From contig CM059432.1 of NCBI GenBank assembly GCA_030390025.1, forward strand, positions 60,762,001-60,826,000: a stretch of 64,000 nt of DNA, written 5' to 3'. Shown here piece after piece: positions 16,523-56,050 of the stretch (position 1 is the stretch's first letter; each line of letters starts with the position of its first letter). The notes beneath the pieces are model-generated. The model searched no databases, was not told where the DNA came from, and saw nothing but the letters and a program-made list of their open reading frames with translations. The position numbers and the translations under genes were made by a program. The DNA comes from Squalus acanthias (Eukaryota).

Positions 16523-16619
16523 GTTGGGTGTGATGGGATTTCTCGCCTCAGCGCTTCAGCCCTGAATAATGAATTCTTTGCTTACGCGGCACAAGGTTGG
16601 AAGGAACGATTAGCAGAAG
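16523..16619 (+). CDS. ASXL3: ASXL3 internal exon (97 nt), ASXH/DEUBAD domain
   Basis: Splice sites ttttcAG|GTTGGG...GCAGAAG|GTataa. Translates [32 protein letters not shown](G); [13 protein letters not shown] is the ASXL3-type DEUBAD motif. Upstream exons lie outside the window. Confidence 0.95.
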
Positions 16620-26460: not shown

Positions 26461-27311
26461 TTTTTCTTTGTGGGAACATATTTGCTCTGAACCCTCACTG
26501 TCTCCTCCTTGAATACCTCCCACTGCTCTGACACTGACTTACCTTCAAGTAGCTGTTTCCAGTCCACTTTTGCTAAATCACATCTCAGCTTAGTAAAATT
26601 GGCCTTTCCCCAATCGAGAACTTTTACACCTGGTCCATCTTTGTCCTTTTCCATAACTATGATAAATCTAACTGAATTATGATCACTACCACCAAAATGC
26701 TCTCCCACTGATTCCCCTTCCACCTGCCCAGCTTCATTCCATAAAACTAAGTCCAGAACTGTCCCCTCTCTTGTTGGGCTTGTTACGTACTGAATGCATT
26801 TTAAGAATTCTGAGCTCTCTATTCCTTCTGCACTAATTCTACCCCAGTTAATATTAAGGTAGTTGAAATCCCCTACTATTACTGCCCTATTGTTTTTGCG
26901 CTACTCAGAAATTTGCCTGCATATTTGCTCTTCTATCTCCCTCTGACCCTCTTCACAGAAGTGGTAAAAGTGTGGAACTCTCTCCCACAAAAAGCAGTAG
27001 ATGCTAACTCAATTAATAATTTTAAACCTGAGATCGATAGATTTTTGCTAGCCAAGGTATTAAGGGATATGGAGTCAAGTCAGGTGAATGGAGTTAGGAT
27101 AAAGATCGGCCATGATCTCATTGAATGGCAGAACAGGCTCGAGGGGCTGAATGGCCTACTCCTGTTCCTATCTTCCTATTTAGGATCCTCAGGCAGGAAC
27201 TAAATTATGGCGCACTGCAACAGTAACAAAATATTTATATTAAATGTTAAATTTACACATTCTAACAAAGATGATGCTATTTTTATTTCATACCCTGTAA
27301 ACTTTGTGCAG

Positions 27312-27417
27312 GTGAATTTACTCCTGAAATGCAGTTACGTATTCGACAAGAGATTGAAAAGGAGAAAAAGGTAGAACACTGGAAGGAAAAATTCTTTGAA
27401 CAATATTATGGAGAAAA
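27312..27417 (+). CDS. ASXL3: ASXL3 internal exon (106 nt), end of DEUBAD domain
   Basis: Splice sites tgtgcAG|GTGAATTT...GGAGAAAA|GTaagc. Translates (G)[34 protein letters not shown](K). Phase 1 in, phase 2 out, consistent with the neighbouring exons. Confidence 0.96.
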
Positions 27418-27687
27418 GTAAGCACTTTAGTAGTTCTTTAATATTGCAGCTGATCCCCTTTTCATTTTGAGCTGTGGTTTTATTTTTCCATGTTTGGAGT
27501 GTACTACAACAAGCTTAGCATCTTCTGTGTCTTCTGTTTCACCTGTTTTTATTTTATTTTTTTACTTATGTAACATTCCCCGATTGTTATCCTCTGTTAC
27601 TCGGTCGAGCAACTACTGCTGAATCGGTGGGCCATCTGCTTTCTGACCCGGGCCAATCCCTCTTTTGGTCAGTCACACGGTACTGTT

Positions 27688-33113: not shown

Positions 33114-34243
33114 TTATCCCTGCTTAGCTCTCGATCCGCTTCCGCTCAGGTCCGCTCCTTCTGGTCTCGGGCCTGCCCTCGCCATGCTTATTATCCCCGC
33201 TCAGCTCTCGATCCGCTCCCTCTCAGGTCCGCTCCTTCTGGTCTCGTGCCTGCCCTCGCCATGCTTATTATCCCCGCTCAGCTCTCGATCCGCTCCCTCT
33301 CAGGTCCGCTCCTTCTGGTCTCGGGCCTGCCCTCGCCATGCTTATTATCCCCGCTCAGCTCTCGATCCGCTCCCGCTCAGGTCCGCTCCTTCTGGTCTCG
33401 GGCCTGCCCTCGCCATGCTTATTATCCCCGCTCAGCTCTCGATCCGCTCCCTCTCAGGTCCGCTCCTTCTGGTCTCGGGCCTGCCCTCGCCATGCTTATT
33501 ATCCCCGCTCAGCTCTCGATCCGCTCCCTCTCAGGTCCGCTCCTTCTGGTCTCGGGCCTGCCCTCGCCATGCTTATTATCCCCGCTCAGCTCTCGATCCG
33601 CTCCCGCTCAGGTCCGCTCCTTCTGGTCTCGGGCCTGCCCTCGCCATGCTTATTATCCCCGCTCAGCTCTCGATCCGCTCCCTCTCAGGTCCGCTCCTTC
33701 TGGTCTCGGGCCTGCCCTCGCCATGCTTATTATCCCCGCTCAGCTCTCGATCCACTCCCTCTCAGGTCCGCTCCTTCTGGTCTCGGGCCTGCCCTCGCCA
33801 TGCTTATTATCCCCGCTCAGCTCTCGATCCGCTCCCACTCAGGTCCGCTCCTTCTGGTCTCGGGCCTGCCCTCGCCATGCTTATTATCCCCGCTCAGCTC
33901 TCGATCCGCTCCCTCTCAGGTCCGCTCCTTCTGGTCTCGGACCTGCCCTCGCCATGCTTATTATCCCCGCTCAGCTCTCGATCCGCTCCCGCTCAGGTCC
34001 GCTCCTTCTGGTCTCGGGCCTGCCCTCGCCATGCTTATTATCCCCGCTCAGCTCTCGATCCGCTCCCGCTCAGGTCCGCTCCTTCTGGTCTCGGGCCTGC
34101 CCTCGCCATGCTTATTATCCCCGCTCAGCTCTCGATCCGCTCCCGCTCAGGTCCGCTCCTTCTGGTCTCGGGCCTGCCCTCGCCATGCTTATTATCCCCA
34201 CTCAGCTCTCGATCCGCTCCCTCTCAGGTCCGCTCCTTCTGGT
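33114..34243. repeat. 77-bp GC-rich tandem repeat, about 14.5 near-identical copies
   Basis: Unit CTCAGCTCTCGATCCGCTCCC(T/G)CTCAGGTCCGCTCCTTCTGGTCTCGGGCCTGCCCTCGCCATGCTTATTATCCCCG; ATGs recur at 33184, 33261 and 33338. Confidence 0.97.
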
Positions 34244-34558: not shown

Positions 34559-35663
34559 GTTGGGTATAACACAAGAAGAAGCTATGAAGCTGGAATCAGT
34601 AAAAGATTCTTTTGAAAATCAAGACAGCCATTCACTTTCAGCACAACACATCATATCAGGGCCCTGTCAGATCACATCTGGTAGTAAACGTGAAAACAAA
34701 GGAAATCTTGTGCCTTATACAGATCTAAAGCAAACACAATTAATCATACAGCAAATCCCAACCAAAGAACCATCCAAAACTGCGAAAGAGGAGGATATAC
34801 TAATATCCTTGTGCTCAGACATTACCTCAGACGAATCTGTTATTCAGGAAGAGATAGCAGAAGAAGTTGAACCGAATATTTGTGGAAGTCATGATGAAAA
34901 CAAACCTCCTGAGTCTAATACCTCTGACATTGATCAGTCTTGCCTGCGTAGCCCTGAAAAGGCAGAACAAGAGATATCGGCAGATGACTTGAAGCCTGTT
35001 CTCATTACACAAAGTATCAAGGAGTTTGAGTCCCAATCTGAGCACACTGTAGATCCACAGACGCCTTCCCCGGGGATATCTAGCATTTCTTTCCAACTAC
35101 TTACTTCCACTTCTACACCTTCTCAACTTTCTGATTCCTTTGATGCATCTAACAGTGACATATGTGAGCCGGCGCCTAACACAAGTAATGAGGAGAGTAC
35201 CCTAGAGCAGTGTAGTGCCCCTATGTGCTCAGAATCTTCATCTTATTGTGAGGAGCTTGAGGCTGTTACGAATAACCCCGATTCTCCAGAGGGAAATACA
35301 CAGTGCACATCTCAGCAACCACATACCACTGCATGCTCTGAAACCTCCGTACTGTCTGAGCTTTCTGAAACTGAGAACAAAGACCCTGAAAACCAACCAA
35401 GGACATTGCAGTACATCTCTCAGCCACTGCCACGGACATCCACACCCTCAGACTCTTTCACATCATCTTCCGAGGGAGTTAGAAATGACAACAAAGACCT
35501 TGAGTTACAAAAGAGAAAACCATTAGAACAGCACGTTCTGGAGATCTGTCACGAGAAAAGGCCTAGAATTGAAAATGACCAGTCCTTTCGGACTCTACCC
35601 AGCAGGTCTCAAAGTGAAAAAGAGATGCCTACAAAAGAAGAGCCAAAGGTCCCACCTATCAAG
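34559..35663 (+). CDS. ASXL3: ASXL3 penultimate coding exon (1105 nt), Ser/Glu/Pro-rich, ending KRPRIENDQSFR...KEEPKVPPIK
   Basis: Acceptor attcAG|GTTGGGT gives (K)LGITQEEAMKL; donor ATCAAG|GTacat. Lies inside ORF 34431-35816. EEPKVPPIK begins the ASXM1 region. Confidence 0.93.
35583..35591 (+). promoter_or_regulatory. Candidate +1 programmed ribosomal frameshift site UCC_UUU_CGG
   Basis: In-frame codons S-F-R (CAG TCC TTT CGG). It sits in the same QSFR context as the ASXL1 UCC_UUU_CGU site and is a one-base variant of the influenza PA-X shift site. Confidence 0.7.
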
Positions 35664-38600
35664 GTACATTACATAGAAAAAAATAAGCCAAAGTGTAACC
35701 TAGATACTTTTATTATATTTCTAGACAGTAATTGTTTTTATACTCACAATAAGTCAAACTGCATTAGTTTACCTTTATATCTCCTTGGATTTACACCTGC
35801 GCCTTTGCCCTGGTAGCCTATTTGAGATTTTTTTTTTTGTGAAGAAAATGTTATCATAAGTGATAAAACAAAAATAAAAGTTTTTTTCAAATCAAATCAC
35901 CAGTAAGTATCTAAAAATTCTTAATATTATCAATACAGTCTACAGCGTTTTATCTGGACCACATTATCAGATTGCATTCATTGAAGATGGTATTTAAGGG
36001 ACTTTTACTCAGAAAAAAACTCTGATAGCTAAGGCCTAAACACCAGAGTTTAATTAACTGTGTGCTCCAACATCTGACTTTATTCAATAATAGAAATAAA
36101 TGTATCATAAGTGAGAATTGGCATCCACAAAATATTGTACAGATGTATTAATTGTCTTGTAATGAGCATGACAGTCAAGTTCAATTTAATTATTTTTGAG
36201 AAAGTTCTCAACTATCATTTAGATAATGGTTTTGAAGAGTATTTAATGAGGCAATGCTGTATCAGTTTGACGAGTAGACAGAGAAGCCTTTCTGAGTACT
36301 ATTAGCTTATTCTATAAAAGTGAATTAGTTGTCCGGTATGAATAATTGCTACAATATATGACAAGACGGGGACAATTTTTGAAAAATGTATAAATATTAA
36401 CATAAAACTGTAGCAATTCATCAGACACGAACTGGACCAAGATTAACAGCTGAAGTGGTGTCTGTCATAGGGTTTCCACCTGCCCAGTTTTTCACTGGCA
36501 CAGCTATTGTTTTGAAGTTGCTGCGGCTTGCTAGTTGAAAGTTTTAGCTGGCGGTACAGTCGACATTTTTTGTAACATTGCATATTTTTTTAATAAGGCT
36601 GCTATGTGGTGGTCAAGCCTGTCAACAGTGGCAATTTCAAAATCCGTGAAGACCACTGCAGAACAAAAAAAGAATTTTCACAGTTAATTGGAGGTTCAGT
36701 TCTACAGCCAATAAGATAAAGTACCAGCAGAGGCCCCCTGTTTTATTTACTTGAAGTCTCTTTGCAAATTTTACCCGGTAATCTCCTGGAATCGGGCATT
36801 GCTGGTAGCAACCCTTTGCGCTTTAAATTTCCCGCCGCGGCAGCAGTCACCCCACTCCGTGACGTCACCGACTGCCACCGCAGAAAAGCCTCCAGCTAGA
36901 GTGAACAGGGACTAGGGGCAGGGTATTGAGGCTCGGGAGTGGCGATTGGGTGGTGGGGTGGGGGTGACTAAAAAAAATAATAAAGAGAGTGAAGATGAAT
37001 TATGAGAGTAAACTAGCAAGAAATATTAAAACAGATAGTAAGAGCTTCTACAGGTATATAAAAGAGAGTAGCTAAAGTAAACGTTGGTTCCTCAGAGGAT
37101 GAGACTAGGGAATTAATAATAGGGAACGGGGAAATAGCAGAGACTCTGAACAAATATTTTGTATCTGTCTTCACAGTAGAAGACACTAACAACATCCCAA
37201 TAATGGGCAATCAAGGGGCCACAGGGAGGGGGGAACTCACCTTGCATACTTACCACTCCACACTTGCACCCATCACTCATCTCTACACCTTACTTCCAGG
37301 TGCCTCCGACCACCGCAGACCTCCTCCACGTCTCCTCCAACCCGGCGGGGTTCTCCGAGGTCAGGAAGCCTTCACCTGTGATGGTAAAATGGCACTAATC
37401 CTTTTTTATGCCTGTTAACAGGCAGTTAAAAGGATTAAATGCCTTTCCCGCCTCCAGGAGATGGGACCCGAAGCTGCACATCTTCCTGCCTCCTGGCAAA
37501 AGGGCACGGAGGCGGGATGGGGGCAGCTTTGCCATCCGCCCCCACTTTCTCCGAATTTACCAGCTGTCCTGCCTCCATGAGGCTTGGAAAATCCAGCCCA
37601 TAGAGTACAAAAGTGTGGAAATTAAGATGAACCTGTATAAAACACTGGTTCGGCCCCAACTGGAATACTGTGTCCAATTCTGGGCACCACACTTTAGGAA
37701 GGATGTGAAGGTCTTAGAGAGGGTGCAGAAAAGATTTACGAGAATGATTCCAGGAATGAGGGACTTCAGTTAGGATGATAGACTGGAGAAGCTGGGGTTG
37801 TTCTCCTTGGAGCAGCGAAGATTGAGAGGAGATTTGATAGAGGTATTCAAAATAATGGGGGGTCTGGACAGTGTAGATAGAGGGAAACTGTTCCCTTTGG
37901 CAGAAGGGTCGAGAACCAGAGGACACAGATTTAAGGTGATTGGCAGAAGAACCAAAGACGACGTAAGAAAAATCTTTTTTATGCAGCGAGTGGTTAAGAT
38001 CTGGAATGCACTGCCTGAAAGGATGGTGGAGGCAGATTCAATCACTGCTTTCAAAAGGGAGTTGGATAAGTATCTGCAGGAAAGAAATTTGCAGGGCTAC
38101 GGGGAAAGGGCAGGGGTGTGGGACTAGCTGAAGTGCTCTAGCGGAGAGCCGGCACAGGCTCGAAGGGTCGAATGGCCGCCTTCCGTGCTGTAACTAACTA
38201 AAGACAATCACTATCACTAAGGAAAAAGTACTTGGTAAAATAATGGGACTAAAAGACGACAAGTCCCCTGGACCAGATGGCCTGCATCCCAGGGTCTTAA
38301 AAGAAGTGGCTGCAGAGATAGTGGATGCATTGGTTGCAAAATACCAAAATTCCCTGGACTCTGGAGAGGTCCCAGCGGATTGGAAAACCGCAAATGTAAC
38401 ACCCCTATTTAAGAAAGGAGGGAGACAGAAAGCAGGAAACTATAGACCAGTCAGCCTAACACCTGTCGTTGGGAAAATGCTGGAGTCCTTCATTAAGGAA
38501 GCAGTAGCAGGGAATTTGGAAAATTATAATGCAGTCAAGCAGAGTCAGCATGGTTTTATAAAAGGGAAATCATGTTTAACAAATTTGCTGGAGTTCTTTG

Positions 38601-41600
38601 AGGATGTAACAAGCAGGGTGGACAAAGGTGAGCCAGTGGATGTGGTGTATTTGGATTTCCAGAAGGCATTCGATGAAGTGCCACATAAAAAGGTTACTGC
38701 ATAAGATAAGAGCTCACGGAGTTGGGGGTAATATATTAGCATGGATAGATAATTGGCTAACTAACAGAAAGCAGAGAGTCGGGATAAATGGGTCATTTTC
38801 CGGTTGGCAAATGGTAACTAGTGGGGTGCCACAGGGATCGGTGCTGGGGACTCAACTATTTACAATCTACATTAATGACTTGGATGAAGGGACCGAGTGT
38901 AAGGTAGCCAAGTTTGCAGATGATACAAAGATGGGTGGGAAAGCAAGTTGTGCAGAGGACTCAAAGAATCTGCAAAGGAATATAGACAGGCTAAGTGAGT
39001 GGGCAAATATTTGGCAGATGGAGTATAATGTGGGAAAGTGCGAGGTTATACACTTTGGCAGGAAAAATAAAAAAGCAAATTATTATTTAAATAGAGATTA
39101 CAAAATGCTACAGTTCAGAGGGACCTGGGGGTCCTTGTGCATGAAACACAAAAAGTTAGCATGCAGGTACAGCAAGTAATCAAAAAGACAAATGGAATGT
39201 TGGCCTTTATTGCAAGGGGGTTGGAGTATAAAAGCAGGGAAGTCCTGCTACAACTGTACAGGGCATTGGTGAGACCACACCTTGAGTACTGCGTACAGTT
39301 TTGGTCTCCTTATTTAAGGAAGGATTGGAGGCAGTTCAGAGACGATTCACTAGGTTAATTCCAGAGATGAGGGGGTTGACGTATGAGGAAAGGTTGAGCA
39401 GGTTGGGCCTATACTCATTGGAATTTAGAAGAATGAGAGGTGATCTTATTGAAACATATAAGATACTGAGGGGGCTCGACAAGGTAGATGCAGAGAGGAT
39501 GTTTCCCCTCGTGGGGAAATCTAGAACGCGGGGGCATAGTTTCAGAATAAAGGGTCGCCCTTATAGAACTGAGATGAGGAGGAATTTCTTCTCTCAGAGG
39601 GTCATAAATCTGTGGAATTCTCTGCCCCAAAGAGCCGTGGAGGCTGGGTCATTAAATACATTTAACGTGGAGATAGACAGATTTTTGCAAGGTAAGGGAG
39701 TGAAGGGTTATGGGGAGTGGGCAGGGAAGTGGCTTTGAGCCCAAGATCAGCCATGATCTTATTGAATGGCGGAGCAGGATCGAGGGGCCAAGTGGCCTAT
39801 TCCTGCTCCTATTTCTTATAATAATTGGTGCTGAGCTTAGTTTAGGAAGCTGTGTCCTGTGAGAAGTGCCCCAAACACCAAGCCCGCTGCCCTTTGTGCG
39901 GTCTCTCGGTTTGGTTCAGCTCTGACTGAGGCTCCCAGTTCAGAGTTGTCACCTTCACACAGATCTTGAGTCCAAACCAGAGTCCAAGGAGATAGGGAGA
40001 GAGATCGGGCCTATTAAAAGTGGCATTGACTGGGGAGCCTGGCTGCACCTTGTGCAGTGCAGGGGGATTCTGGCTGTCACTACAGGGTGAATATCAGCAG
40101 GTTATAGGATTACTGCTAGTAACACTTAGGATATTGGGGTGTTACACCTATTACTGCCAGTGACATATAGACTATCAGTGAGTAATTGTACTGCTGTTGG
40201 TTAATCTCAGTGTTGCCAATATTACTATTAGTTTTTGGTGCAATTTCAGTGAGTTTCTGTGGGCTGGATTTTGATGGGGTCAGCGGGCGCTATCGGTGGC
40301 GGGTCGGGTGGCAAAATGTTTTTTTTCCCCAGCGGGTCGGGACCCCGCTGTGAACCCGCCGCCACGTGCCTTCACCAAATGTTGGGTCTGTCAGCGCTGA
40401 GCGGACCCGACACATAGCGGCGGGTTCACAGCGGGGGACCCAATTCTGGCAATTAGTGGCTTGTTTAGAGCCACTTAAGAATGAATTTCAGCTCACCTTC
40501 TGCATTTGACAGTCCGCCCACGGGGTCCACGCTGGTTGTGGACCACGTCTGTCAAGCTGAGGCGGGAGTTCTTTGGCCATTAAATTGGCTGTTGCGTTGA
40601 CAGCTTCAAATGTACAGTAAAAGATCCCACCTTACAGAGATATCTTCCCTCAGCCACAAACTCTTCCTCACTGCATTTCCACAACAGATTCACCATTCTG
40701 CAAGTCTTTACACAAGTCTCCATCCGTCTGACCTCATTACCTCTCCCACCATTGACAGATCGCTTCTGCCATCTCTACCTCACCTGCCATCTATTCCATC
40801 AGCATGGGTGCCCTTTATACTCTCTCACCTTGGTCCTCAGAATCCCACCACGATCAGCTCCAACACCAGCAGCACCAGGTACACCAGCAGCACCAACAAC
40901 AACACCACCAACTTTCTCCGCAATCACCTGATGCTGCACAGGACAGAGGGCATCAGCACCCGACCACATTGCTGCCCGGGAGGCCAGGGATGGCCTCACC
41001 ATGGCCAGATTTACTTTACTTGATGCTGTACACCCTGACTGCCACATGATGTGCCAGGCTGGCACCACCCAACACCAACACCATAAAGCATCCCTACAAT
41101 GCCCAAGCCATTCCTTTCACACACCTCACCATTGCGGGGGGGTACAGTTATGTCTCACCATTCACTGCAACTCACTAAGCCACTTCCAAGGGTGCACACA
41201 AATCTGTCCAAGAACACAAAGTGTTCAAAATATAGGTTTCAATGCTTGACACCACATTAACAGAAACTTTACATGAACATTGGATAAAACACCCAAGTGC
41301 CTACCCTTGTGTGTTGTTAGTTGGTATGATTGCACTAGGATGAGGGTGAGTGTGAGGGGTGGCTAGTGAGATGGGGATGTGATAATGTAGATAGAGAGAG
41401 GGATGGGTGGAGGTGCAAGGTAAGTTGGTGTGAGTAAGGATTTGCAGGAGTAGGGTAGGGAAGACAGAGTGATGGGGATGTGATGAGAGGCACAGCAGGA
41501 TGAGGTTGAGTGTGGCTTTGCAGTAACGTTTTGTGATCTACTGAAATCATTGAATCGTTTGCGGCACTGCAGCCTGGTCTTCCTGAACACATCCCTGCTT

Positions 41601-44600
41601 GTGCCCTCCTCTGCAATGTGGAACGAGGCTGCGTTGATCTCCTGGAGGGGTCTCTTCCGTCCATGGGAAGGGAAGAGAACCTCCCTGTGTGCTGTGACTC
41701 CCTCCATAAGCATATGGAGGGAATCATGGGAGAGCCTGGGTGCAGCCGTGCACCTTTGTGCAGTGCTTGTCAGTGTTTGCAGCACCTCAATGCTGTAGAA
41801 CACTGACAGCACAAATCTCAAAATAAATTTGGCCATGGACCCTTTAAGGAAACCGGTTGATGACGCGTCATAAAATGACGACACCAGGCCCGCTTCCTCT
41901 AATTGGCCGGGAAGCGCGCTGGGCGGGCTTAACAAGCCCAATCTAGGGAAATGAATTTCAGAGGCCGGGATGGATACAGCAGCAAGGTTCGTAAAATCAC
42001 GGCCTATAAGTTAGTAGTGGAATCAAAGTTCCTTCCACCTCTGGTTTCCCTCTACGAATCGCTCCCCCACCTTTGATTTCAACTCTTTGCTGCCCTTGGT
42101 TTCCCTTCGTCGCCTGCTCATGGGTGGCTTCCTGGTTCTCAGAACATCTCACATAACAGCTGCTGGCACGAAACTACAAGCAGATATTCAACTGCAGGGT
42201 GCCCATTTGCACAACCTTTATAACATAAAGGCAGTAACATTTGCAGGTGTCATGTGATCAGATGTCATTTGATCAAACAAACCTCCAGGAATCCCTCCAA
42301 CCAAAATTGGCAACCCTACGCCAGTTGCAAATTCTGGCAATTCATGATTCTTTTTCCCCTCTGTTTTTGAAAGTTCATTTTTCTACTGTTTTTTGATGTT
42401 CTTTCTGTAATGCAAACAACTTTTGGACCAAGAGTGAATTCAGTGTGTCTATTCAGGCCTCTGCTAATTTCAACCTCTGATCATCCGTTAAGGGTGTGAT
42501 AAAGTGTTGTTGGTTGGGTTTTCTTCTCTGGATGGCCTGGCTGAGACTGAGACTCATGGAGGCAATAAACCTATATTATGTGTCCAAAGTGTTACAGGGT
42601 TTAGGAGCCCTGTATTATCTGGTGCTGAGGCCCGATGTCTCCAACATGTGCTATGTGTGCATGCTGGAGCAACATGTAGCACATTGGAAACCCACAAAAG
42701 AAATGTATGCAAGTGTCATAAAGGCCTCAATGTTTATGGAAATTAGGAGCCTTGCCATAATGTGGCTGGAGCTCCTGAGAAGCACTCCAGACAGTCAGAG
42801 CCCATTTAGAATGGGGACTTCAGGCAAGGCCTGTTAAAACATTTTGAACTTGCCTCCTGGGTGGCCGCCTTCTTCCAATGGGGCTGCACGTCATTTTCAA
42901 ACCTTGCCTCTTTAGCCACCCAAAAAGCTTTAGCAAAGAGCCGGCACAGATACAATGGGCCAACTGGCCTCCTTCAGTGGTGTGAGCTTCTATGATTTGA
43001 TGCTGCCACTATCTGCAACACACTCACTATCTGCATTATCACCAGCTTTCAACTCTATCATTTCTTTATCTATGTAATTTTAAAAAACCTGCAAATTGCC
43101 TTGGGGTTGGCTAGTAAAATTTGATCCAAGGCTTTGCATGCACAAAATGAAATAAATAAATTGTACTGCTTACACTTAGTAGCTAATTAAATAAATGTAA
43201 ATCTGTATTTATGCTCTAGTTCCAGGTTTGTAAAAGATTGATTCGGTTCAGATCAGGAAGGTCCAATGTGGCAGAATTAAATTACAACCCTGTCATGCTA
43301 AACTGGATCCATCCTGTCCCACTTCAAAGCAGAATAACAATTTCATATCAAGAAGTAGGAGTTTGCACTCTAAACTGTCACTGGAGTTATTAATCCCACA
43401 CTGTCCACACAAGAATGTAAATAAGGCTTTGGAACAAAGACAAATGGTTCAAAGAAACTGAAGACAAAGAAACAAAAAGCAAAAAAAAATCAGATGCTGA
43501 GCTGACGTTGAAAATCTGTATAAAAAAAAAATAGAAAATGCTGGAAGCACTCACATACATACTTGCACAGACATACATGCACAGGCATATACGCACAGAC
43601 ATACAGATGCACACTCATACACTCATACACACACACAAGGAAATAGAATGATATTGACACGAGACAGCAGGAGACATAATGAGAGAAATTAAAGACACGG
43701 GCCATAATTTTCATCTTCATTGCTTGGGTGATAATCTGGTGGAGCGCATCACTCATCCATTATAGAACTTGCCCATGTTTCATTCTAATGCACTCAATGG
43801 AATGAAAATGAGGTGAGTTCTATAATGGGCGGGCAACCCACACTACCAGTTTGCCATCTGAGCAGTGAAGATGAAAATTACCCCCATTTATGAGATACAG
43901 AAGAACGTGTGAATTGCTGAGGTGGTGGAGACAAAGGAAAAAGTAAAATATAAAAGAATAAAATGAAGTTAGAACAAATGTACACAAAGTGAAGTGTTAT
44001 TTTAGAATGTTGATGGGTGGCTCAATGGATAATGCAGTGAGATGGCAGAGCATGCTTTATTCTCTACTTATGCAGTGCTTATACTGTCTTGAGCAAGAGT
44101 GTAATGGAATGATTTTATGTTCAGTCCCAGTTCTACACAATTGTCACCAGTTATATGGTGTAAAATTGCGCAGCTTAAAAAGCATTCACTGTCTCCGTGC
44201 GCCATAGTGATGTTGTATGCAATAATGATGTTGTGGTGCTTTATATAGTTCAGTACTTCTACTGCCTTCTTTGTCAGAGACACTTGGCACCAATATTTAC
44301 TGGGGCGTACCTCGTGAGCAGAGATTGGGGGGTGTGGTTGCTCGGGGAATTTTGGCCGCATGCTGTGGAGTTTTGACTCCACGTCGTGTGTTTTTTTTTT
44401 CATGCAGGTTCCCCACCCGGAAGCCAGCCTGATTGAGAGGCTTGGCTCCCTGTCGGGCGGGGAACGCTCCAGAGGAGGCCGCAGCCCAGGAGGAGGTAGG
44501 GAGCCTGCAGTTGGGTTAGTAGGAGCGAGGAGGGGGGTTCCAGAACTTTGAGGGGAGGGTGAAACGATCCCTGGGGAGGGATCTGATCTGGGGGGGGGGC

Positions 44601-47600
44601 GGTGTTGGTCACCGATCCCGTGGGGGGTTGTGGGGGTCCGCTGGCGAGCAGGGAAGCAGGTAAGCTTGGTGGGTTGGGAGGAAGCACTCCTGCTCCTCTT
44701 GCCCCACAAGCAGTGCTCTAAAGGCACTTAACCTTTTCCACGAAGCAGTCCTCACCTCCCTTTAGCTGTCAGGTTTCCCAGCCAGGGTTAAACCTGGAAG
44801 ACAGGTTAAATATGAGGCTCGCAGCCTCATTATAATATTTAAATGGGAGCCAGTTGAAGGTGGTTTGGGGTTGGGTTAAAGATTTTAAAAATTCTTACAT
44901 CCCACCCGACCCCAACCCACCCATTTTTTGGGTTAAAATAACCCTGATTGTGATTTTGTTGCTCCAAAGGCAATAGTTTAGATACTGAGCATCATACATT
45001 TAAAAAAATACATGAAACAACGAGAGAGGTGCATCCAGAAATCTGCCTACGAGTATATACTGCATCCACATTCAAGTATATACTGCATCCACATTCAAGG
45101 AAAAATTTGTATATTGGTCTGCTGGAGAACCAGTTTAGACCACATGAGAAAGAGACTATGGGGGTGCAATGCAATTCACGGGAAAAACAAGCTGCTTCAG
45201 TTTCTAGTATACAGTATAATGGGAATCAGTTACCAATTGTCAATATATTCAGAATAACTAGTTATTGATTTGTAGACAGTGAGGACCTACTTCTGTTTTG
45301 TCATCCGAGCTGGTCACTAATCTTGTTACCAGCTTTGGTCAGAACAGAATAGTTCCTATGGGTGGCGGGGTGGGTGGTGGTTGTGAAGGGCGGCTTGTAC
45401 ACCCGCTGTTTGGAAATTCAAGAACTGGTTTTCCAGATTTGGCAAGACAACTCGATGAAGTGTTAGCTATGTCTAAATGGGTAAGAAACTGAGTTATCTA
45501 TCCTCTTTTGTCAACTGGATTCAAGCTGGTTAACAAATGATCGATTCTGCTTCTCACTTACTCTTTCTGATATCGTCAAATGATCTTTGGGTCTCTTTCC
45601 AGTTTTCTACCTCTTAATTTTTCTGTAAATGTCTATTGATTTCTTTCTGTGTCTCTCTTTTTCTGTTTACTTTGTGCACCTGTTTCATCTTCCTGTGCAG
45701 TTTGTTGTTTACTCTTTAGATTTCTCATGCAGTGTGTACAGCATGAAGTGATAAACTGCTTTCTATTTGCTGTTTTGTTGGTCTTGGCTGTTAAAGTGAC
45801 GGATTAGCAGAGAAGCTGAAGTAGTACATGCTCCTGAGCTTTTAAAAAAGAAAGTATGACTTTTAAAATGTCTTCTTTAAAAAGCATTTGACAAATCATT
45901 CTTTTGTCTGTAAAGGGAGAGAATAATTTTTCAACAGTATGATGCCACATGCAAACAATCATTTCTTTTTCTTTCTTTACCAATTCTCTCCAGCAGTTTT
46001 CTCCCCCTTCTCCTCTCCTGATAAGATTAACGGTCTGACTTCCCTTCAGTATTTGTCCATTGTGCCACACTATTCATGTGTCAATCTTGACAGACTAGGG
46101 CCGACTTTCCTTTTTGTTCCACCTGGGGAATGCTGAGCACCCAGTGAAGAGGAAATGGGCGTCGAGACTTATGGGGTTCATTTTCAACTTTGCCGCCTGG
46201 GCAGTAACCTGGAGCAACGAATTGCCTGCTCGTTGTAGAACCTAACATCAATGGAATAAAAATTGGGTGGGGGATCCATTCCATCAGGTTACCATCCACG
46301 CAACTAAGTTCAAAACTACCCCATTGCATCAGGTTTTCACCCCGACTACACCCTGTTGGGGAGGGTTTAAACTAATTTGACAGGGGGATGGGCACCAGGA
46401 TGTAACATTAGAAAGGGGAAATAAAGTGCTCAAAGGATTGGGAGAGGCAAAGAGCACTAAAGTAAGAAATAGTAAGGTATTAGGGGGTGTCAAACTAAGA
46501 GAGAATACAGGATGGTCTAAGATGGGTTTACAGTGGATGTATGTGAACGCATGAAGCGTAGTAAACAAGGTAAGTGAGCTGCAGGCACAAATAGCCTCAT
46601 GGGAATACGAGGTTGTGGCAATAACTGAGACCTGGCTCAAAAAAGGGCAGGATGGGGTATTAAATATTCCTGGTTATAAAGTGTTCAGGAAAGATAGGAG
46701 GTGGTGTGGCAGTATTGGTCAAGGAGAATGTTACAGTGCTGGAGAGGGAGGATGTCCTGGAGGGGTCAAGGACAGAATCTATATGGCTAGAGTTAAGAAA
46801 TAATAGAGGTGCCATTACAGTACTAGGTGTATTCTACAGACCACCAAATAGTGGGAAAGATATGGAGGAGCAAATGTGCAGAGAAATTACAGAGAGGTGC
46901 AAGAACTATAGAGTAGTAATAATGGGGGGACTTCAACTATCCTAATATAAACTGGGATAGTAATAGTATTAAGGGGAGAGAAGGGGAAGAATTTCTGAAG
47001 TGTGTTCAGGAGAACTTTCTTGCTTAGTGTGTTTACAGCCCGACGAGGGAGGAGGCATTGCTGGATCTGGTTCTGGGGAATGAGGTAGGTCAAGTGGAGC
47101 AAGTGTCAGTAGGTGAACATTTAGGGAACAGTGATCATCGTATCATAAGGTTTAGATTAGCTATGGAAAAGGACAGGGAGCAATCTAGAGTAAAAATGTT
47201 TAACCGGGGAAGGCCAATTTCAGTGGGATGAGAATGGATCTGGCCCGGGTAAACTGGAATCAAAGATTGGCAGGCAAAACTGTAATGGAACAATGGGCTG
47301 CCTTTAAAGAGGAAATAGTTCAGGTACAGTCAAGGTACATTCCCACTAGGGGGAAAGGCAGGGCAACTAAAGTCAGGGCTCCCTGGATGACGAAAGAGAT
47401 AGAGAATATCATGAAGCAGAAAAAGAGCACGTATGACAGATGTCAGGTTGCAAATACATCTGAGAATCAGGCTATATATAGAAAGGTCAGAGGAGAAGTG
47501 AAAAAGAAAATAAGAGGGGAAAAGAGAGGGTATGAGAATAGAATGGCAGCTAACATAAAAGGTAATCCAAAAGTCTTCTATAGGAATATAAATAGTAAAA

Positions 47601-50600
47601 GGGTAGTAAGAGGAGGGGTGGGGCCGATTAGGGACCAAAAAGGAGACCTATGCATGGAGGCAGAGGGTATGGCTGAGGTACTAAATGAGTACTTTGCATC
47701 TGTCTTCACCAAGGAAGAGGATGCTGCCATAGACATAGTAAAGGAGGAGGTAGCGGAGATACTTGATAGCAGTATTAGAAAGGCTGGCTGTACTTAAAGT
47801 AGATAAGTCACCAGGAGCGGATGGGATGCATCCTAGGATGCTGAAGGAATTGAGGGAGGTACTGGCCATAATATTCCAATCCTCCTTAGAAATGGGAGTG
47901 GTGCCAGAAGACTGGAGAATTGCAAATGTTACACCATTGTTCAAAAAAGGGTGTAAAGATAAACCCAGCAACTACAGGCCAGCCAGTTTAACCTCGGTAG
48001 TGGGGAAGCTTTTAGAAACAGTAATCAGGGACAAAATTAACAGTCACTTGGGCAAATATGGATTAATTAAGGAAAGCCAGCACGGATTTGTTAAAGGCAA
48101 ATCGTGTTTAACTAACTTGATTGAGTTCTTTGATGAGATAACACGGATGTTTGATGAGGGTAATGCGATTGACATAGTGTACATGGATTTCCAAAAGGTG
48201 TTCGACAAAGTGCCACATAATAGGCTTGCCACCAGAGTTGAAGCCCATGGAATAAAAGAAACAGTGGCAGCATGGATATGGAATTGGCTAAGTGATAGGA
48301 AGCAGAGAGAAGTGGTGAATGGTTGTTTTTCGGACTGGAGGAAGGTATAAAGTGGTGTTCCCCAGGGGTCAGTTCTAGGATCACAGCTTTTCTTGATATA
48401 TATTAATGACTCAGATGTGGGTGTACAGGGCACAATTTCAAAATTTGCAGATGACACAAAACGTGGAAGTATAGTGAACAGTGAGGAGGAGAGTGATAGA
48501 TTTCAGGAAGACATAGACAGGCTGGTGAAATGGGTGGACACATGGCAGATGAAATTTAACGCAGAAAAGTGTGAAGTGATACATTTTGGTAGAAAGAATG
48601 AGGAGAGGACATGTAAACTAAATGGTACAACCCAGAAGAGGGTGCACGAACAGAGAGACCTAGGGGTATGTGCACAAATCGTTGAAGGTGGCAGGGCAGG
48701 TTGAGAAAGCAGTTAAAAAGGCTTATGGGATCCTGGGCTTCATGAATAGAGCTATAGAGTACAAAAGCGTGGAAATTATGATGAACCTGTATAAAACACT
48801 GGTTCAGCCCCAACTGGAGTACGGTGTCCAATTCTGGGCACCACACTTTAGGAAGGATGTGAAGGCCTTAGAGAGGGTGCAGAAAAGATTTACAAGAATG
48901 ATTCCAGGAATGAGGGACTTCAGTTACGTTGATAGACTGGAGAAGCTGGGGTTGTTTTCCTTGGAGCAGCGAAGATTGAGAGGAGATTTGATAGAGGTAT
49001 TCAAAATCATGAGGGGTCTGGACAGAGTAGATAGAGGGAAACTGTTCCCATTGACGGCAGGGTCGAGAACCAGAGGACACAGATTTAAGGTGATTGGCAA
49101 AAGAACCAAAGGCGACGTAAAAAAAAACTTTTTTATGCAGCGAGTGGTTAAGATCTGGAATGCACTGCCTGAAAGGGTGGTGGAGGCAGACTCAATCACG
49201 GCTTTCAAAAGGGAGTTAGATAAGTATCTGAAGGAAAGAAATTTGCAGGTCTACGGGGAAAGGGCGGGGGAGTGGGACTAGCTGAAGTGCTCTTGCAGAG
49301 AGCCGGCACGGGCTCGACGGGTCAAATGGCCTCCTTCTGTGCTGTAACCATTCTATGATTTTACACCACCCCAGGGTTTCTGGGGCTTCCCCGACTAAAT
49401 GTAATTGTGCCTGCGCCTGCAATAAGTACAGACCCAACATAAGCGTCTAAAAGAGGCATTTAAGCTGTGACGCAAAAAGATTAAACACACTGGTGGTAAT
49501 TTTGACTTTTGCCGATAGTGTAAAACGTGCCACCCATTAAATACTTCTCCCGATTTTATTTCCCATTGAAGTTACGCACTGAGTTGCCAATCTCAGCCAT
49601 GTCTTTATTGAAGATGAGAAGTCGCACAACACCAGGTTATAGTCCAACAGATTTATTTAATTTTACAAGCTTTCGGAGCAGTTCGCTCCTTCGTCAGGTA
49701 AGTTTAGCAGTGAGAGAATCTCCCAGAATTCACAATTTAAACACAGACAAAATATATTCAAATCTTTCCCACATCAAAGAGCATAGCCAAGACAATGAGA
49801 TGTGTCCCAGGGGGTCCAACGTGTCAAACCACCTGCTGGCTGCATATCCTGTCAATCTGTGTAGGTTCTTGTGTTAGCCTTTTTTTAAAAAAAACACCTG
49901 GGAAGACCTGCCATGATGTCAAGCCACGTTCTGTATCGTGACATGAACCCGATATCGCGATTGAGGCCCTCCTCATGAGTGCGGAACTTGGCTATCAGTT
50001 TCTGCTCTATGATTTTGCGCTGTCGTGTATTTCGAAGGCCGCCTTGGAGAACGCTTACCCGCATATCCGAGGCTGAATGCCCCTGGCTGCTGAAGTGTTC
50101 CCCGACTGGGAGGCAACCCTCCTGCCTGGCGATTGTTGCGCGGTGTCCGTTCATACGTTGTCTCAGTGTCTGCATGGTCTCGCCGATGTACCATGCTCTG
50201 GAGCATCCTTTACTGCAACGTATCAGGTAGACAACGTTGGCCGAGTCACATGAGTATGTACCGTGTACCTGGTGGGTAGTGTCCTCACGTGTGATGATGG
50301 TATCTGTGTCCATGATTTGGCATGTCTTGCAGAGGTTGCCGTGGCAGGGTTGTGTGGTGTCTTGGTTGCTGTTCGCCTGAAAGATGGGTAATCTGCTGCG
50401 AACGATGGTACTTTTGAGGTTAGGCGGCTGCTTGAAGGCGAGTAGTGGAGGCGTGGGGATGGCCTTAGCAAGGTGTTCGTCGTCATCGATGACATGTTGA
50501 AGGCTGCGAAGAACATGGCGTAGTTTTTCCGCTCCGGGGAAGTACTGGACGACGTAGGGTACTCTGTTGGTTGTGTCCCGTGTTCGTCTTCTGAGGAGGT

Positions 50601-52665
50601 CTATGCGGTTTTTCGCTGTGGCCCGTCGGAACTGTTGATCGACGATCCAAGGCGGCCTTCGAAATACACGACAGCGCAAAATCATAGAGCAGAAACTGAT
50701 AGCCAAGTTCCGCACTCATGAGGAGGGCCTCAATCGCGATATCGGGTTCATGTCACGATACAGAACGTGGCTTGACATCATGGCAGGTCTTCCCAGGTGT
50801 TTTTTTTAAAAAAAGGCTAACACAAGAACCTACACAGATTGACAGGATATGCAGCCAGCAGGTGGTTTGACACGTTGGACCCCCTGGAACACATCTCATT
50901 GTCTTGGCTATGCTCTTTGATGTGGGAAAGATTTGAATATATTTTGTCTGTGTTTAAATTGTGAATTCTGGGAGATTCTCTCACTGCTAAACTTACCTGA
51001 CGAAGGAGCGAACTGCTCCGAAAGCTTGTAAAATTAAATAAATCTGTTGGACTATAACCTGGTGTTGTGCGACTTCTCATTTTTGTCCACCCCAGTCCAA
51101 CGCCGGCATCTCCACATCATGACCTTTATTGAAGATGCCAGACAAAGGTCAAATGCTTTCCTTCACGAAGGCAGGGGGGAAAAGTGATAATGAAAGCGAC
51201 TTCTTGTCCTTGGATGATTTCTATCTGCATTCCCCTCTCCCACCTCCATTGGATTACTTGCCCTCCTTTCTTCCCTCAGCCAGCCCAAAATTGGGTCTTG
51301 GATCTCATTTCAATAATTTAGCTGACGTGTCTCCAGAGGCAGCTCACCTCGGACCAGACCCCTCTGGGAAGCAGCCCCATTTAAACCCACCCTATGCCTA
51401 CAGTCCTTTAGTTAATTTATGATGCATCTCACAATGTCACCCTTGACACCATTAACTTAATTTTAGCACAAAGTGCTTTGTGGCACTTTATTGGAACCTT
51501 TTTCAAAATCTAAGTAGTTGACATCTCCCTGATCTATCTTTCGATTGACTTCTTCAAAAAACTGGATCAGGTTTATGGAACATGACCTCCCATTTTTTGA
51601 AGCCAGATTGAGTATCTCTTACCAATCCCGGGCGTTCTAGGTGACTATTAATAGTATCCCTAATGATGCTTTCCATTAATTTCCCTACTACTGAGGTTAA
51701 ACTCACTGGTCTTTCCATCGAGTTTATAGTCCCATTCTTCCCAAAATGTCACTAAAATGAATGAAAGGTAAATCGTCGACAGTGCACCCATAACCTGATT
51801 GTGGACTCAGTGGGAGAGGCTCCCTGCTGGTGCGGACAGATGTAAGATCACCCCATATATGCACCTGTTCTTGGCTTCGCTTCCCATATTTATTCTCCCT
51901 CCCGCAAACAGAAATTAACATGTTACTATTACAATAAGCAGCATCTAAATTTCATATAAAACTATTAACTACCCTTTGTGCCTGATCTCATGAGCTAATG
52001 AACTTATCAGAGTGTTTACACTGGAAAGCAAAGACGATTAAAACATGAACAGCATTGAAGGGTTAACTGTAAAATTGATATTCCTGTAGACAGCATTTGT
52101 TACAGAATAGCCATAACGACTCCTCAAGCAATGCCAGAATCCAAGCTTTGTTTTTTAAATAAAGCAACATGAAAATCTGCTGCTCTATTACCAAAATTGT
52201 GTAAGAAATGTAAGCAAATGTAGAGTATTGTAATGCTCTTTAAATAAATAATCTAATACAAATAACGGGATCGACGGATCTATTCTGATTTCTCAGTGTA
52301 TTTGCATGGATCTAATTATGGTGCTTTTCTTTAACAGATTCACTTGTCAAGGATCAAACTTCCTTTTGTCATCAAGAGTCAGCCATCCTACCAAATTTGT
52401 CCAAAGGCATCCTCCAGTGCGGTACCGGGTGGAGGAAGAAACACTGGTGCAAGGACCCTTGCAGATATCAAGGCCAGAGCACAGCAGGCTAGAGCTCAGA
52501 GGGAGGCAGCAGCAGCAGCAGCAGCAGCTGGCGCAGTGGGAGACGGCGGGATCGGCAATACAGGATCAACTGGAGGACAGACCAGAACATTGGCAGATAT
52601 TAAAGCACAAACAAAGGCAAAGTTACTTGCGAAACATCAGGCAAGAACACAATTACTGCAATTAG
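35590..52665 (+). CDS. Overlapping +1 transframe (TF) ORF, spliced 35590-35663 + 52338-52665, 133 codons, ending EHNYCN*
   Basis: Translated by hand with no stop: [51 protein letters not shown]...QQQQQQQ...[17 protein letters not shown] is at 52645-52656 and TAG at 52663-52665. Confidence 0.75.
36975..39820 (+). mobile_element. CR1 LINE ORF2 (36975-37237 and 38199-39820), split by a composite insertion
   Basis: LNKYFVSVFT, DKSPGPDGLHPRVLKE, YLDFQKAFD, KFADDTK and a 3' tail. GGGGAACT and AAAGACAATCAC rejoin across the insert. Confidence 0.88.
37238..38198 (+). mobile_element. Composite insert: Harbinger-type end fragment (to 37599) fused to a CR1 3' end (37600-38195)
   Basis: AAAATCCAGCCC terminus followed directly by CR1 IEYKSVE...; AACT on both flanks. 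Confidence 0.7.
40261..42004 (-). mobile_element. Non-autonomous Harbinger element with a Myb/SANT-like exon (copy C)
   Basis: Termini GGGCTGGATTTT...AAAATCACGGCC, with TGT/TAT flanks. ORF 41363-41941 contains RLQCRKRFNDF. Confidence 0.82.
43699..43885. mobile_element. Short palindromic MITE
   Basis: Inverted ends TAATTTTCATCTTCATTGCT / AGCAGTGAAGATGAAAATTA and internal CATTATAGAACT / AGTTCTATAATG. Confidence 0.7.
46354..49361 (+). mobile_element. CR1 LINE ORF2 (endonuclease and RT), same subfamily as 27688-33113, opposite orientation
   Basis: AITETWL, YRPP, DKSPG, YMDFQKVFDKVPH and KFADDTK. The translations are nearly the same as those of the minus-strand copy. Confidence 0.93.
49614..51123 (-). 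mobile_element. Penelope-like retroelement (GIY-YIG endonuclease 3' part) with inverted pseudo-LTRs and a 14-bp TSD
   Basis: ORF 49885-50715 has NVVYLIRC...YIGET...LRQRMNGH...EQKLI...GLN. Inverted arms 49614-50048 and 50646-51080. CTTTATTGAAGATG occurs at 49603-49616 and 51124-51137. Confidence 0.93.
50995..51030 (+). ncRNA. Minimal hammerhead-ribozyme-like motif in the Penelope pLTR (inverted copy at about 49664-49699)
   Basis: CUGACGA-A-GGAGC(GAACU)GCUCC-GAAA-GCUU: conserved core boxes, stem II and a palindromic AAGCUU in the stem III region. Confidence 0.65.
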
Positions 52666-55600
52666 ATGATCAGCCCTCTTGTAAACAAGGCAGGGCTGCA
52701 GTAGGAGATGTGCAGGATACCAGTGTTTCAAAGAGTGAAGAGACTGTTAAAGCAGATCATATCCCTTACCTAAATACCTTCATAACGTGCCGTACTGAAA
52801 GTGCCCCCATGCTAAAAGTTGATGATAATGTCACTGTGTCAGATTACACCACCAATAGTGCTATGCCTTACTCTCCTGATAATGCTGCAGTGGCAAACTC
52901 TGCTCACAGTAGCACAGCACCCAGCTGTGTTGATAATGCTGCAATACTACACTGCACTGACAATATTGCAGTGCCAAGCTCTGTTAGTTTTGTTATGTCC
53001 ACCTCTACTAACAATATTACTGTGCCCAGCTCTAGCGTCGAGGAACAGCATCCTCACAATATCACTAAAGAGAAGTGTGCTAACAGTACTGGCATGTCAA
53101 GGTGTGCTGACAGGAATTCCATATCAAGCAGTGCTGCCAATAACACAATGCCAAGTTGCACTAATGAAATTACTGTACCAAGTTCTAATGATTTTGGTAA
53201 TAATACAGTCTCTCCATGTTCTGCAGACATTGTTTCCAAAACTCATACTGCACATAATACATCCATGCAATGCTGGCCTGAGAGTATTGTCCTGGCAGGG
53301 TATTGCACCAGAACCAGCTCTTCTGATAACATTTCTACTCCAAACTCTGGTAATGACATTACCATTCTAAGCAGTAATGAAAATGAAGCTGATAGCTATG
53401 ATGATGCCTTTGGGCATCACTCTACTGATAACACCACTTTGCCCAGCTGTGTTGCCAGTACAGACATTTTGAGTTTCGATAATACTGTTGTTTTGAATTC
53501 TGCCAGCAATATCAACATGCCAACCAACTTCAGTGTTACAACCATCCCAAATTCTGCAGACCTGTCACTAGATCTGGGCTCTGCTACAGTAAATGAGATA
53601 AAAATTGGTGCTGCAAGTGCCCAGCTGTTGAGCTCTTTGAAACCTCTTATCAGTACTGAAGGACCCTCTAATCCTCATGTGGGTTACACTGTGGCTGATT
53701 CACATACAATGCTAGGAACTTACTTTTCAAATTTTGGTATGAACTCCCAGGCGGAAATGGTTAAAACAGAAAATGCCTTGAACCATAAAGTGCATTCTCA
53801 GGAATTTGTCAGTAACTGGGCTGAACCAGACAGTGATAATCGATTACAAAACAGTGGCAGAAGCAGTGATTCTCAGGTACTAGCAGAACAAGAGAATGCC
53901 AGTCTACTGCTACCCTCTAAAGACTCACAAGAACCTACACTCCGACATGAAACAACAGACACTGCTGGTCTACAGTTTGAACTTACTGACCCGCAGCATC
54001 ATTGTTTTACAGTTAAAAACTCAACAGATTTGGAAGGAATGGTTAGTAATAACCAGGACCAAAATGTCTCAAACCAAAGTAAATCAAGTTATCATGTTGG
54101 TGAAGAAACGCAAAGTATCAGTGAGCTAGTGAGCTACAGTAGCGAAAGCCACAGCTTGAATAACCATAAAGAGTATGATGATGGTACAGTGAAGAGTGAC
54201 AAATTGGACACTTATACAAACCCTGAAGAATCCACAGACACAAAAGAAAGAAAATTGGAGTCTCTTAGCATTTCTGCCGAGGAGAAAGCTGACCAGTCCA
54301 GACAAAAGGAAAAATACTTGTCCAATGCACATGGCTCTGAAACTAAACAAGGAGAGTATCAGGAAAAGCGTGATGCTACAGAAAATGCAATTCACCCTCA
54401 AATCATTCCAGTAGTGGGCAATTTCCAAACAAAAACCGCTAAAACACCTTTTGGTACAAACCAGTCTGAGACCTTCACATTAGCAGCTGTGGAAAACCAA
54501 GAAAAAGTTCCTGCTCCGGGAAGCGCTAATCGTCATCTTTCATCAGTCGAAGCCAATAACCCTCTTGTGACACAGTTGCTGCAAGGCAACTTGCCTTTGG
54601 AGAAAGTGCTGCCTCAGCTTCGGTCAGGTGCCAGGCTTGAAATCAATAGGCTTCCTTTGCCCTCTCGCGGTTCTGTTGAATCCAAAGTGACTGCTGCTGA
54701 TAAAGATGTCGCCATTAACATTCCTCAGGCCTCGAAGGGGCATACTTGGGGAACAGTATGGCAGATTCAGTGCAAAACTCGTGACATGCAAGTAAGCAAG
54801 AGGCAGGCTAAGTCAATAGGGGAACAGTCACAAAGTAGGTTTAAGCAAGCAAAGCAGTTCACTGCCGTAGGAGTAAAAATGTGGGCACAGACTCCACTCG
54901 ACATAGATCAGATCAATCAGGGGAACGGCAGACATTATTTAAACAGGAGTGGATAAACAAGACTTTCATTCAGCACAAAGTCGCTGAAAGTCCAGAGTTT
55001 AAAGAGCACAAGAGACCTTTGCCTGCATGTAGTTTTGAGCAGAATCTGTTGACCAGCAGTGACAGCTTGACTGTTGCAGCCCCTATCTCACAGAGACAGC
55101 ACACTCACCAAAAGTCTGTTACTTTGAGAGGATTGGCTGAAGCAGAAGCCTCACTGCAAGCTGCCTCACTGCAAGCTACCCCACCAGCCACACTGGACTA
55201 TGCCACTCCAAATGCATTAACATTCAACCGACATCTAGAGGGAAGCAGCCCAGCATTTAACTCGACAGCACAAGTGGATACATCAGCGGACACAGATCAG
55301 GAAAGCACAGAAACTGTTTTTTCAAACAGTCTTAAAATTAAGCAAACTGATACCAGCTGCAGAGCAACACAAACTGTCCAGAATAAATCTGTAAAACATC
55401 TTGCTTCACTAAGTGAACGCGAAGTGCCTCCTGATCAAAACCGAGGATCAGTTACTATGGAAACCAATAAAAGAATGAGTTTGCTTGCTACAACTGACAG
55501 CTGTAGTAGTATTAAAATGGAGCAGTTTTCTGTTGATGATGGCCTAAACCATAGCTGTGCAGTGGATCTCAAAGATATTTCAAGTGTTCATTATGAAACA

Positions 55601-56050
55601 AAAGAACAGGTAAAGGATTTTGGACCAACAATGGATGTCTTTTTAGGTAAAATAGTAAATGAATCTGACTTTTCTTCTCATCTGCCCTCTGAGTCTAGTA
55701 AACCAGCTTCGCAGCTTGCTACTCAGAAACTTCTACAGCAGCAGCAACTCTATGGAAATTATTCCACTTTACATTTCAGTGGCACTAATTTGAAACGAGC
55801 CGCTTCTGTTATTGAACAGTCCATTGGTAGTTTTTTGGGAAGTGGTGGAAACAGCGCTATTACTTTGTCTAACCAGAACACTTCCATTCCAGCTCATAAA
55901 TTTTCTGACAATAGTGGTGGTGAAGAACTAGAGTTGAAATGCTCTTGCAGGCTTAAAGCCATGATTATGTGTAAAGGATGTGGAGCTTTCTGCCACGATG
56001 ACTGCATAGGGCCTTCAAAATTATGTGTAGCCTGCTTAGTAGTACGATAG
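52338..56050 (+). CDS. ASXL3: ASXL3 last coding exon (ASXM1, ASXM2, C-terminal PHD finger), with one frame break at about 54845-54956
   Basis: Acceptor ttaacAG|ATTCAC, then [40 protein letters not shown], the second [21 protein letters not shown] typical of ASXL3, and [27 protein letters not shown] second frame (54881-56050) carries FKQEWINK and [41 protein letters not shown]. Confidence 0.95.

Follow-up and report, generated by a model that had tools for sequence, protein, structure and literature searches.

To our knowledge, only a handful of vertebrate nuclear genes have a conserved frameshift. The systems closest to the one described here are the transframe (TF) open reading frames (ORFs) of ASXL1 and ASXL2 (PMC5644247), for which the published clade medians of length run from 126 to 163 codons; the ghostshark ASXL1 site carries CGG, and ASXL2-TF is absent from teleosts and kept by other vertebrates. 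For ASXL3, the same paper reports neither a conserved +1 ORF nor EHxY. In PLEKHM2, +1 shifting at UCC_UUU_CGG was measured at 1.1–1.3% and confirmed by mass spectrometry (PMC11451614), in a study that calls the ASXL1 frameshift unvalidated and bioinformatic only. For PA-X, P-site slippage on UUU_C is favoured, CGG halves the shift efficiency, and altering UCC lowers shifting but does not abolish it (PMC3498833). This study concerns a TF frame in the ASXL3 gene of the shark Squalus acanthias, found in a window of 64,000 nucleotides (GenBank assembly GCA_030390025.1, contig CM059432.1, positions 60,762,001 to 60,826,000, forward strand; coordinates below are those of the window). The shift site, the open +1 frame and the EHNY motif are intact at this locus and have homologues in ASXL1 and ASXL2, and the ASXL3 frame is probably a relic of an ancestral ASXL transframe system that is now decaying.

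On the spliced ASXL3 message, the zero-frame codons UCC_UUU_CGG (S-F-R) lie at 35583–35591 on the plus strand, TCC TTT CGG at this position being the sole TCCTTTCG on the plus strand of the window; the same nonamer occurs in the ASXL1 gene of this genome and in PLEKHM2. The penultimate coding exon, which is large, acidic and of ASXL3 type (34559–35663, plus strand, acceptor and donor both read; 90% identity to the relative's protein P0002), is joined to the last exon through a GT–AG junction (donor 35663|35664, acceptor 52337|52338) that leaves the zero frame continuous across a last intron of 16.7 kb (35664–52337) with retroelement fragments. The junction 35663|52338 is backed by run X7, in which the overhanging end of a contig, before 52336, matches the end of the upstream exon, and by the proteins of relatives, which read PPIKIHLSRIK. 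The +1 frame is open from a stop at 35524–35526 to the next stop, TAG, at 52663–52665 in the last exon, a total of 154 codons from stop to stop across the splice, with a 5′ part at 35527–35663 and a 3′ part at 52338–52665 that lies over zero-frame ASXM1. After a slip from UUU to UUC it continues for 133 codons, within the range of about 125–165 codons that is typical of ASXL TFs, and its C-terminal end reads RQEHNYCN, in which EHNY (52645–52656, over zero-frame RTQLL) matches the HCF-1-binding consensus [D/E]HxY (PMC5644247). The sole AUG of the +1 frame is found at 35575–35577, 8 nt 5′ of the shift site. The site, both codon counts and the terminal EHNY had been given in exactly this form by an earlier sequence-only reading of the window, and frame reading reproduced each of them.

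When synonymous codons were resampled for the same protein (200,000 draws, using the codon usage of this gene), the site arose with a frequency of 0.029, the open frame with 0.014, the [DE]HxY motif with 0.054 and all three together with about 1e-5. No 3′ RNA stimulatory structure was predicted downstream of the site (z +0.5 to +0.7) and no Pfam family matched the TF peptide above cut-off, and a comparison of its 108 last-exon residues with 1.84 billion cluster representatives returned two matches, both to unrelated repeat proteins.

As in ASXL1-TF (PMC5644247), the ASXL3 frame is entered at the homologous position through a UCC_UUU_CGN site (with CGG, as in ghostshark ASXL1), spans the last splice, carries EH[N/S]Y near its end, stops in the last exon and is without a 3′ RNA structure. 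It differs from ASXL1-TF in length (133 codons against 156 in the ASXL1 gene of this genome), in the patchy occurrence of its site among relatives, where that of ASXL1 is invariant, and in that no significant synonymous constraint was seen in the one pair compared. With ASXL2-TF it shares a homologous +1 ORF and the EHNY motif, whereas the published ASXL2 entry, a −2 site RG_GUC_UCU in the last exon (PMC5644247), is missing from ASXL3. The shift nonamer is identical to that of the PLEKHM2 frameshift (PMC11451614) and nearly identical to that of influenza PA-X (PMC3498833), for both of which P-site slippage on UUU_C has been proposed, at an efficiency of ~1% and with no RNA structure required. 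These two frameshifts are conserved and have been shown by reporter and mass spectrometry, whereas the ASXL TFs are known from sequence.

The assignment of the window gene to ASXL3, already made from diagnostic motifs, is upheld by tree and best matches: the gene falls inside the ASXL3 clade with support of 96/93 (32 rows, conserved blocks), and its grouping with ASXL1 is rejected (p-AU 0.0076). Its best matches are cartilaginous-fish ASXL3 proteins, with 93% for Heptranchias and Pristiophorus (proteins of more than 1527 residues), and all 120 among the matches listed (long proteins) are of ASXL3 type by motif, most being so named. Both the DEUBAD motif and the terminal PHD are present in the window gene. 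The genome holds three ASXL matches, namely the window gene and two separate paralogues elsewhere, and in the tree ASXL1 and ASXL3 form the closest pair. The gene on C11 (L004, G000:C11, minus strand) is ASXL1, with UCC_UUU_CGG and a 156-codon TF ending EHSY...SKVL, and the gene on C9 (L005, G000:C9, minus strand) is ASXL2, with G_GUC_UCU and EHNY; their TFs resemble the Callorhinchus ASXL1 and ASXL2 TF rows in the supplement of PMC5644247. The possibility that the ghostshark 'ASXL1' with CGG (PMC5644247) is a misnamed ASXL3 was considered and rejected; the C11 gene matches that TF row. The CGG in the ASXL1 site of this shark also means that CGG is not unique to the ghostshark, as it was in the 2017 sample. 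The sequence-only reading knew of no TF in ASXL3; PMC5644247 denies one, and a literature search, with subscription journals mostly outside its coverage, found no published ASXL3 TF. Within the literature searched, the ASXL3 TF is an unreported instance of the known ASXL TF system.

Between the shift site and EH[NS]Y, the TF peptides encoded by the three paralogues of this genome can be aligned with one another. At the position of the ASXL1 and ASXL3 shift sites, the penultimate exon of shark ASXL2 reads TTA TTT CGG, and from there the +1 frame is open through G_GUC_UCU to EHNY (185 codons, or 211 from stop to stop). UUU_CGG is therefore kept at one homologous place in all three paralogues, which makes the TF most likely older than the ASXL duplications, as had been proposed from the window alone. 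At the protein level, xFR is found at the homologous place of ASXL2 in 12 of 12 anchored cartilaginous-fish species (two skates being without an anchor), and also in coelacanth, sturgeons, several amphibians and most birds; it occurs in none of 17 named teleost rows, and human ASXL2 has CCA UUU CAG. The chimaera has S-F-R in ASXL1, ASXL2 and ASXL3. Outside the TF, the paralogues differ at 7 of 12 fourfold sites in the PHD and 9 of 15 in ASXM2, or ~0.6 changes per site per branch by a hand Jukes–Cantor estimate. In forward simulations without +1-frame selection (assumed kappa of 3, CpG 4–8x and omega of 0.03/0.5, with the window sequence in place of the ancestor), the site, frame and motif survived together over a branch of ~0.6 with a frequency of 0.001 or less, which argues that the ASXL3 TF was inherited and remained under selection for a long time after duplication. 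The comparison suggests that the +1 site is ancestral, ASXL1 and ASXL2 sharing the ORF but using different shift sites; UUU_CGG in shark ASXL2 is a possible second, +1 entry to its TF, upstream of the published −2 site.

A metagenome scan with the ASXM1 region gave 596 pattern matches, none of which was confirmed, and a second scan with a PHD query gave 60 loci. Among the latter, neither a +1 [DE]HxY nor an in-frame UUU_CG was found close to the clear RTL boxes of five invertebrate-like Asx loci (no cyclostome was sampled), a teleost-like ASXL1 locus (L009) with EHNY and S-F-R served as a positive control, and the others had no usable anchor. In the five invertebrate-like loci (L015, L017, L025, L050 and L062), the RTLAQIK box is present in two to four copies and shows the GGQTRTLA that marks the second box of shark ASXL3.

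Across vertebrates the ASXL3 site is poorly kept. The counts for relatives were made on proteins, in which S-F-R need not be UCC_UUU_CGN. S-F-R is read in 4 of 20 named cartilaginous-fish species (chimaera, sawshark and two catsharks); the other 16 have S-F-Q (five), P-F-Q or P-L-Q (four), or T-I-S or S-I-S, the last two forms being found in all seven rays and skates. In ASXL1, S-F-R is present in 15 of 15 cartilaginous-fish rows and in 120 of 120 matches overall, giving a Fisher p of 2e-6 for the difference, a value that is overstated as the species are related. When mapped on the commonly accepted species tree, the ASXL3 site requires at least three changes, or six if losses alone are allowed. 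Over the 20 residues from the site on, 16 columns are invariant in ASXL1 (15 rows) against 2 in ASXL3 (20 rows). In none of the 20 species was a stop in the +1 frame forced by a pair of zero-frame residues. In bony vertebrates, F[RQ] occurs near the site in one of 105 ASXL3 rows, a frog with a shortened segment; the proposed loss in mammals understates the matter, as the remaining 104 rows lack F[RQ] near the site. The ASXL3 frame is like ASXL1-TF in anatomy and homologous to it, but judged from these alignments it does not show the conservation of site and open frame across orthologues that marks a maintained ASXL TF. At the very position of the last splice junction, the annotated ASXL3 protein of Mobula (P0013) has ~107 inserted residues, which may represent an extra exon in the annotation.

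DNA from 4 of 22 listed runs (X5, X6, X7 and X13) was compared over 52280–53020, with X5, X6 and X13 covering parts of the stretch, the repeat at 52497–52539 skipped and 40 of 47 difference rows listed. The X7 contig, a single contig of depth 10, spans 52336–52995 and carries 15 listed changes in the TF part. One of these, G52549T, creates TGA in the +1 frame 32 codons before EHNY, and 52640–52669, with the EHNY codons and the TAG, is unchanged. All seven zero-frame changes of X7, including G>V at the 52549 codon, match the named horn-shark protein P0004, which reads S-F-Q at the site. In this lineage the TF is therefore broken twice, yet EHNY is kept, and the retention of EHNY behind a stop means that its presence is not evidence of function. 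The sequence-only reading had put forward a complete TF system; that this system is maintained is not supported, in view of the loss of the site residues in 16 of 20 species and of the stop in X7. Two of the findings that it had itself named as telling against it, loss of the shift site and +1 stops in relatives, were encountered in part, EHNY being unchanged in X7. Between the window and X7, synonymous differences amount to 7 of 69 sites in the TF (0.10) and 10 of 65 downstream (0.15; p = 0.44, one pair with low power). From the downstream value, a distance of about 0.08 per branch back to the shark root is obtained, and over such a branch the simulated neutral survival of the whole system is 0.18–0.24; it is 0.05–0.07 at 0.15 per branch and below 0.01 at 0.3.

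A history that fits these observations would begin with a TF already present in the common ancestor of the ASXL1, ASXL2 and ASXL3 genes. The comparison suggests that in ASXL3 it was kept by selection into the early cartilaginous fishes and then relaxed, so that it would now be gone from bony vertebrates and rays and eroded in most sharks, and would be intact in this animal mainly because shark sequences change slowly. Several points weigh against a decaying relic. Loss in relatives is no proof of loss here, as teleosts lost ASXL2-TF and others kept it (PMC5644247). S-F-R is common to chimaera, sawshark, the two catsharks and this shark, and S-F-Q may itself keep some weak slippage on UUU_C. 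At the protein level, 19 of 20 cartilaginous-fish ASXL3 sequences are compatible with +1 [DE]HxY, though so are 73 of 105 bony rows. The lower synonymous difference in the TF lies in the direction of constraint, although it is not significant. X7, which carries the loss, is the only divergent DNA sequence seen, with none from the other S-F-R species, and the simulation rates are assumed.

The same observations lend themselves to a functional, lineage-restricted ASXL3-TF, selected in the lineage of this shark, the catsharks and the chimaera and lost several times elsewhere, which we regard as a serious but rather unlikely alternative. All three parts are intact, the site is identical to that of ASXL1 in the same genome and S-F-R is shared with Callorhinchus across the deepest split, while the neutral survival quoted above becomes small at the two higher rates; the identity of X5 to the window over 52571–52765 points the same way, though X5 is too close to inform. 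Up to six independent losses would be needed, however, the residues just after the site vary freely in ASXL3, unlike those in ASXL1, and the EHNY codons of X7 persist behind a stop. Explanations other than a relic or a lineage-restricted function are improbable even when taken together. The +1 frame could be reached with no frameshifting, from the AUG at 35575 or through a possible alternative 3′ splice site (52277–52296, plus strand, noted from sequence) whose AG at 52295–52296 would connect the zero frame with the +1 frame, open from 52252, and has 12 pyrimidines in 17 positions where the normal acceptor has 11. This is very unlikely: the start of the exon is crossed by a single contig, which is spliced at the normal junction, no read support for this AG was seen (no contig of the four runs covers 52277–52296), a TF-type EH[NS]Y tail occurs in 0 of 272 proteins compared, the AUG is some 2 kb downstream of the start of the coding sequence and the slip site is left unexplained.

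Coincidence is slightly less probable still. The motifs might follow from zero-frame constraint, xFR and RTQLL being motifs of the protein, and a Q-to-R change might have restored the site; parsimony leaves the root state open and allows such a regain, xF[RQ] is widespread in ASXL2 too, and RAHL is conserved in bony ASXL3. Set against this are the joint chance of the three features given the protein, from the resampling, and the S-F-R of all three chimaera genes. Least probable of all is that the finding is known or moot, the gene being a mislabelled ASXL1 copy or broken in this animal. Ghostshark ASXL1 has the same CGG site (PMC5644247), no two paralogues are closer in the tree than ASXL1 and ASXL3, and the assembled zero frame stops before the PHD; the clade support and rejected ASXL1 grouping given above, the match of the C11 gene to the ghostshark ASXL1 TF row (PMC5644247) and the 91% identity to P0002 beyond the break speak otherwise.

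About 1% of ribosomes probably still slip +1 at the site with no RNA stimulator, a rate taken from PLEKHM2 and PA-X, as the anatomy alone is seen here. With the TF stop in the last exon, decay of the message would not be expected, following the argument of PMC5644247. The predicted product of ~840 residues (the site is at residue 710 in P0002) would retain DEUBAD and end with the putative HCF-1 motif, a consensus match, and would be without ASXM2, the PHD and the BRD4 and MLL3/4 motifs. The BRD4 ET-binding motif is LKIQL in human ASXL3 (PMC13021927), with IKIHL as the counterpart here, and the MLL3/4-binding helix is described in PMC11161652. By analogy with these papers, the zero frame of 52338–52665 was assigned the BRD4 motif, across the junction, the MLL3/4-binding helix at about 52437–52499 and the second RTL box. 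The product may then be a BAP1 adaptor that exchanges the BRD4 and MLL3/4 links for an HCF-1 link. Its description as a natural counterpart of ASXL3 truncation alleles is loose, as the shift lies upstream of both motifs, whereas the ASXL1 truncations 1–591 and 1–645 still bind BRD4 (PMC13021927). Domain mapping found ASXL1 residues 600–700 crucial for HCF-1 binding (PMC8225741); they overlap the end of the human ASXL1 TF frame, and, speculatively, the TF product might contribute.

Elsewhere in the window, the plus strand carries ASXL3 exons for part of DEUBAD/ASXH, the BAP1-binding domain (16481–16621; PF13919, E = 0.0018), and for its end (27299–27418; PF13919, E = 0.00021), both given as tblastn match extents, not exact exon ends, and both below the cut-off for a fragment. 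The C-terminal PHD finger and stop of full-length ASXL3 are at 55934–56050 (plus strand; PF13922, E = 9e-22). In the last exon, a base that the sequence-only reading did not comment on is missing near 54911–54912 relative to seven relatives' proteins, which read through, and the resulting one-base frame break (54905–54956, plus strand) leads to a stop at 54954–54956 before the PHD; identity is 91% beyond it, no second copy of the region was found in the assembly, and the break is likely an assembly error. Within the last intron, a perfect 438-nt inverted repeat surrounds a minus-strand ORF (49885–50715) that we take to resemble the GIY-YIG endonuclease of a Penelope-type element, and 49611–51083 is probably a young insertion. 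Further along, 52246–52337 holds two branch-like CTAAT motifs, both with a pyrimidine run and CAG after them; splicing at the more 5′ of the two would lead into the TF frame. A 77-nt unit is repeated in tandem 14.7 times with 98% matches just 5′ of the penultimate exon (33114–34243), and degenerate 36-nt repeats (four copies listed) lie in a Ser/Thr/Asn-rich stretch of the coding last exon (52897–53454).

In conclusion, the occurrence of this site and motif in a third paralogue most likely dates the TF system to before the ASXL duplications, and an ancestral +1 site would explain how ASXL1 and ASXL2 share an ORF and have different shift sites. A bolder version, which we hold to be doubtful, is that a +1 UUU_CGN shift into an HCF-1-binding tail was ancestral to all three vertebrate ASXL genes, that an ASXL3-TF is still produced under selection in some cartilaginous fishes, and that two TF entries, an old +1 and a later −2, exist in the ASXL2 of sharks and of several other lineages outside teleosts and mammals, so that the type of shift changed within the family. 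The intact and broken ASXL3 copies of sharks offer a natural series for learning which bases matter, and X7 cautions that an intact-looking motif is poor evidence of function where sequences evolve as slowly as they do in sharks. The lasting value of the locus would lie in the dating of the TF and in the UUU_CG position common to the three paralogues.

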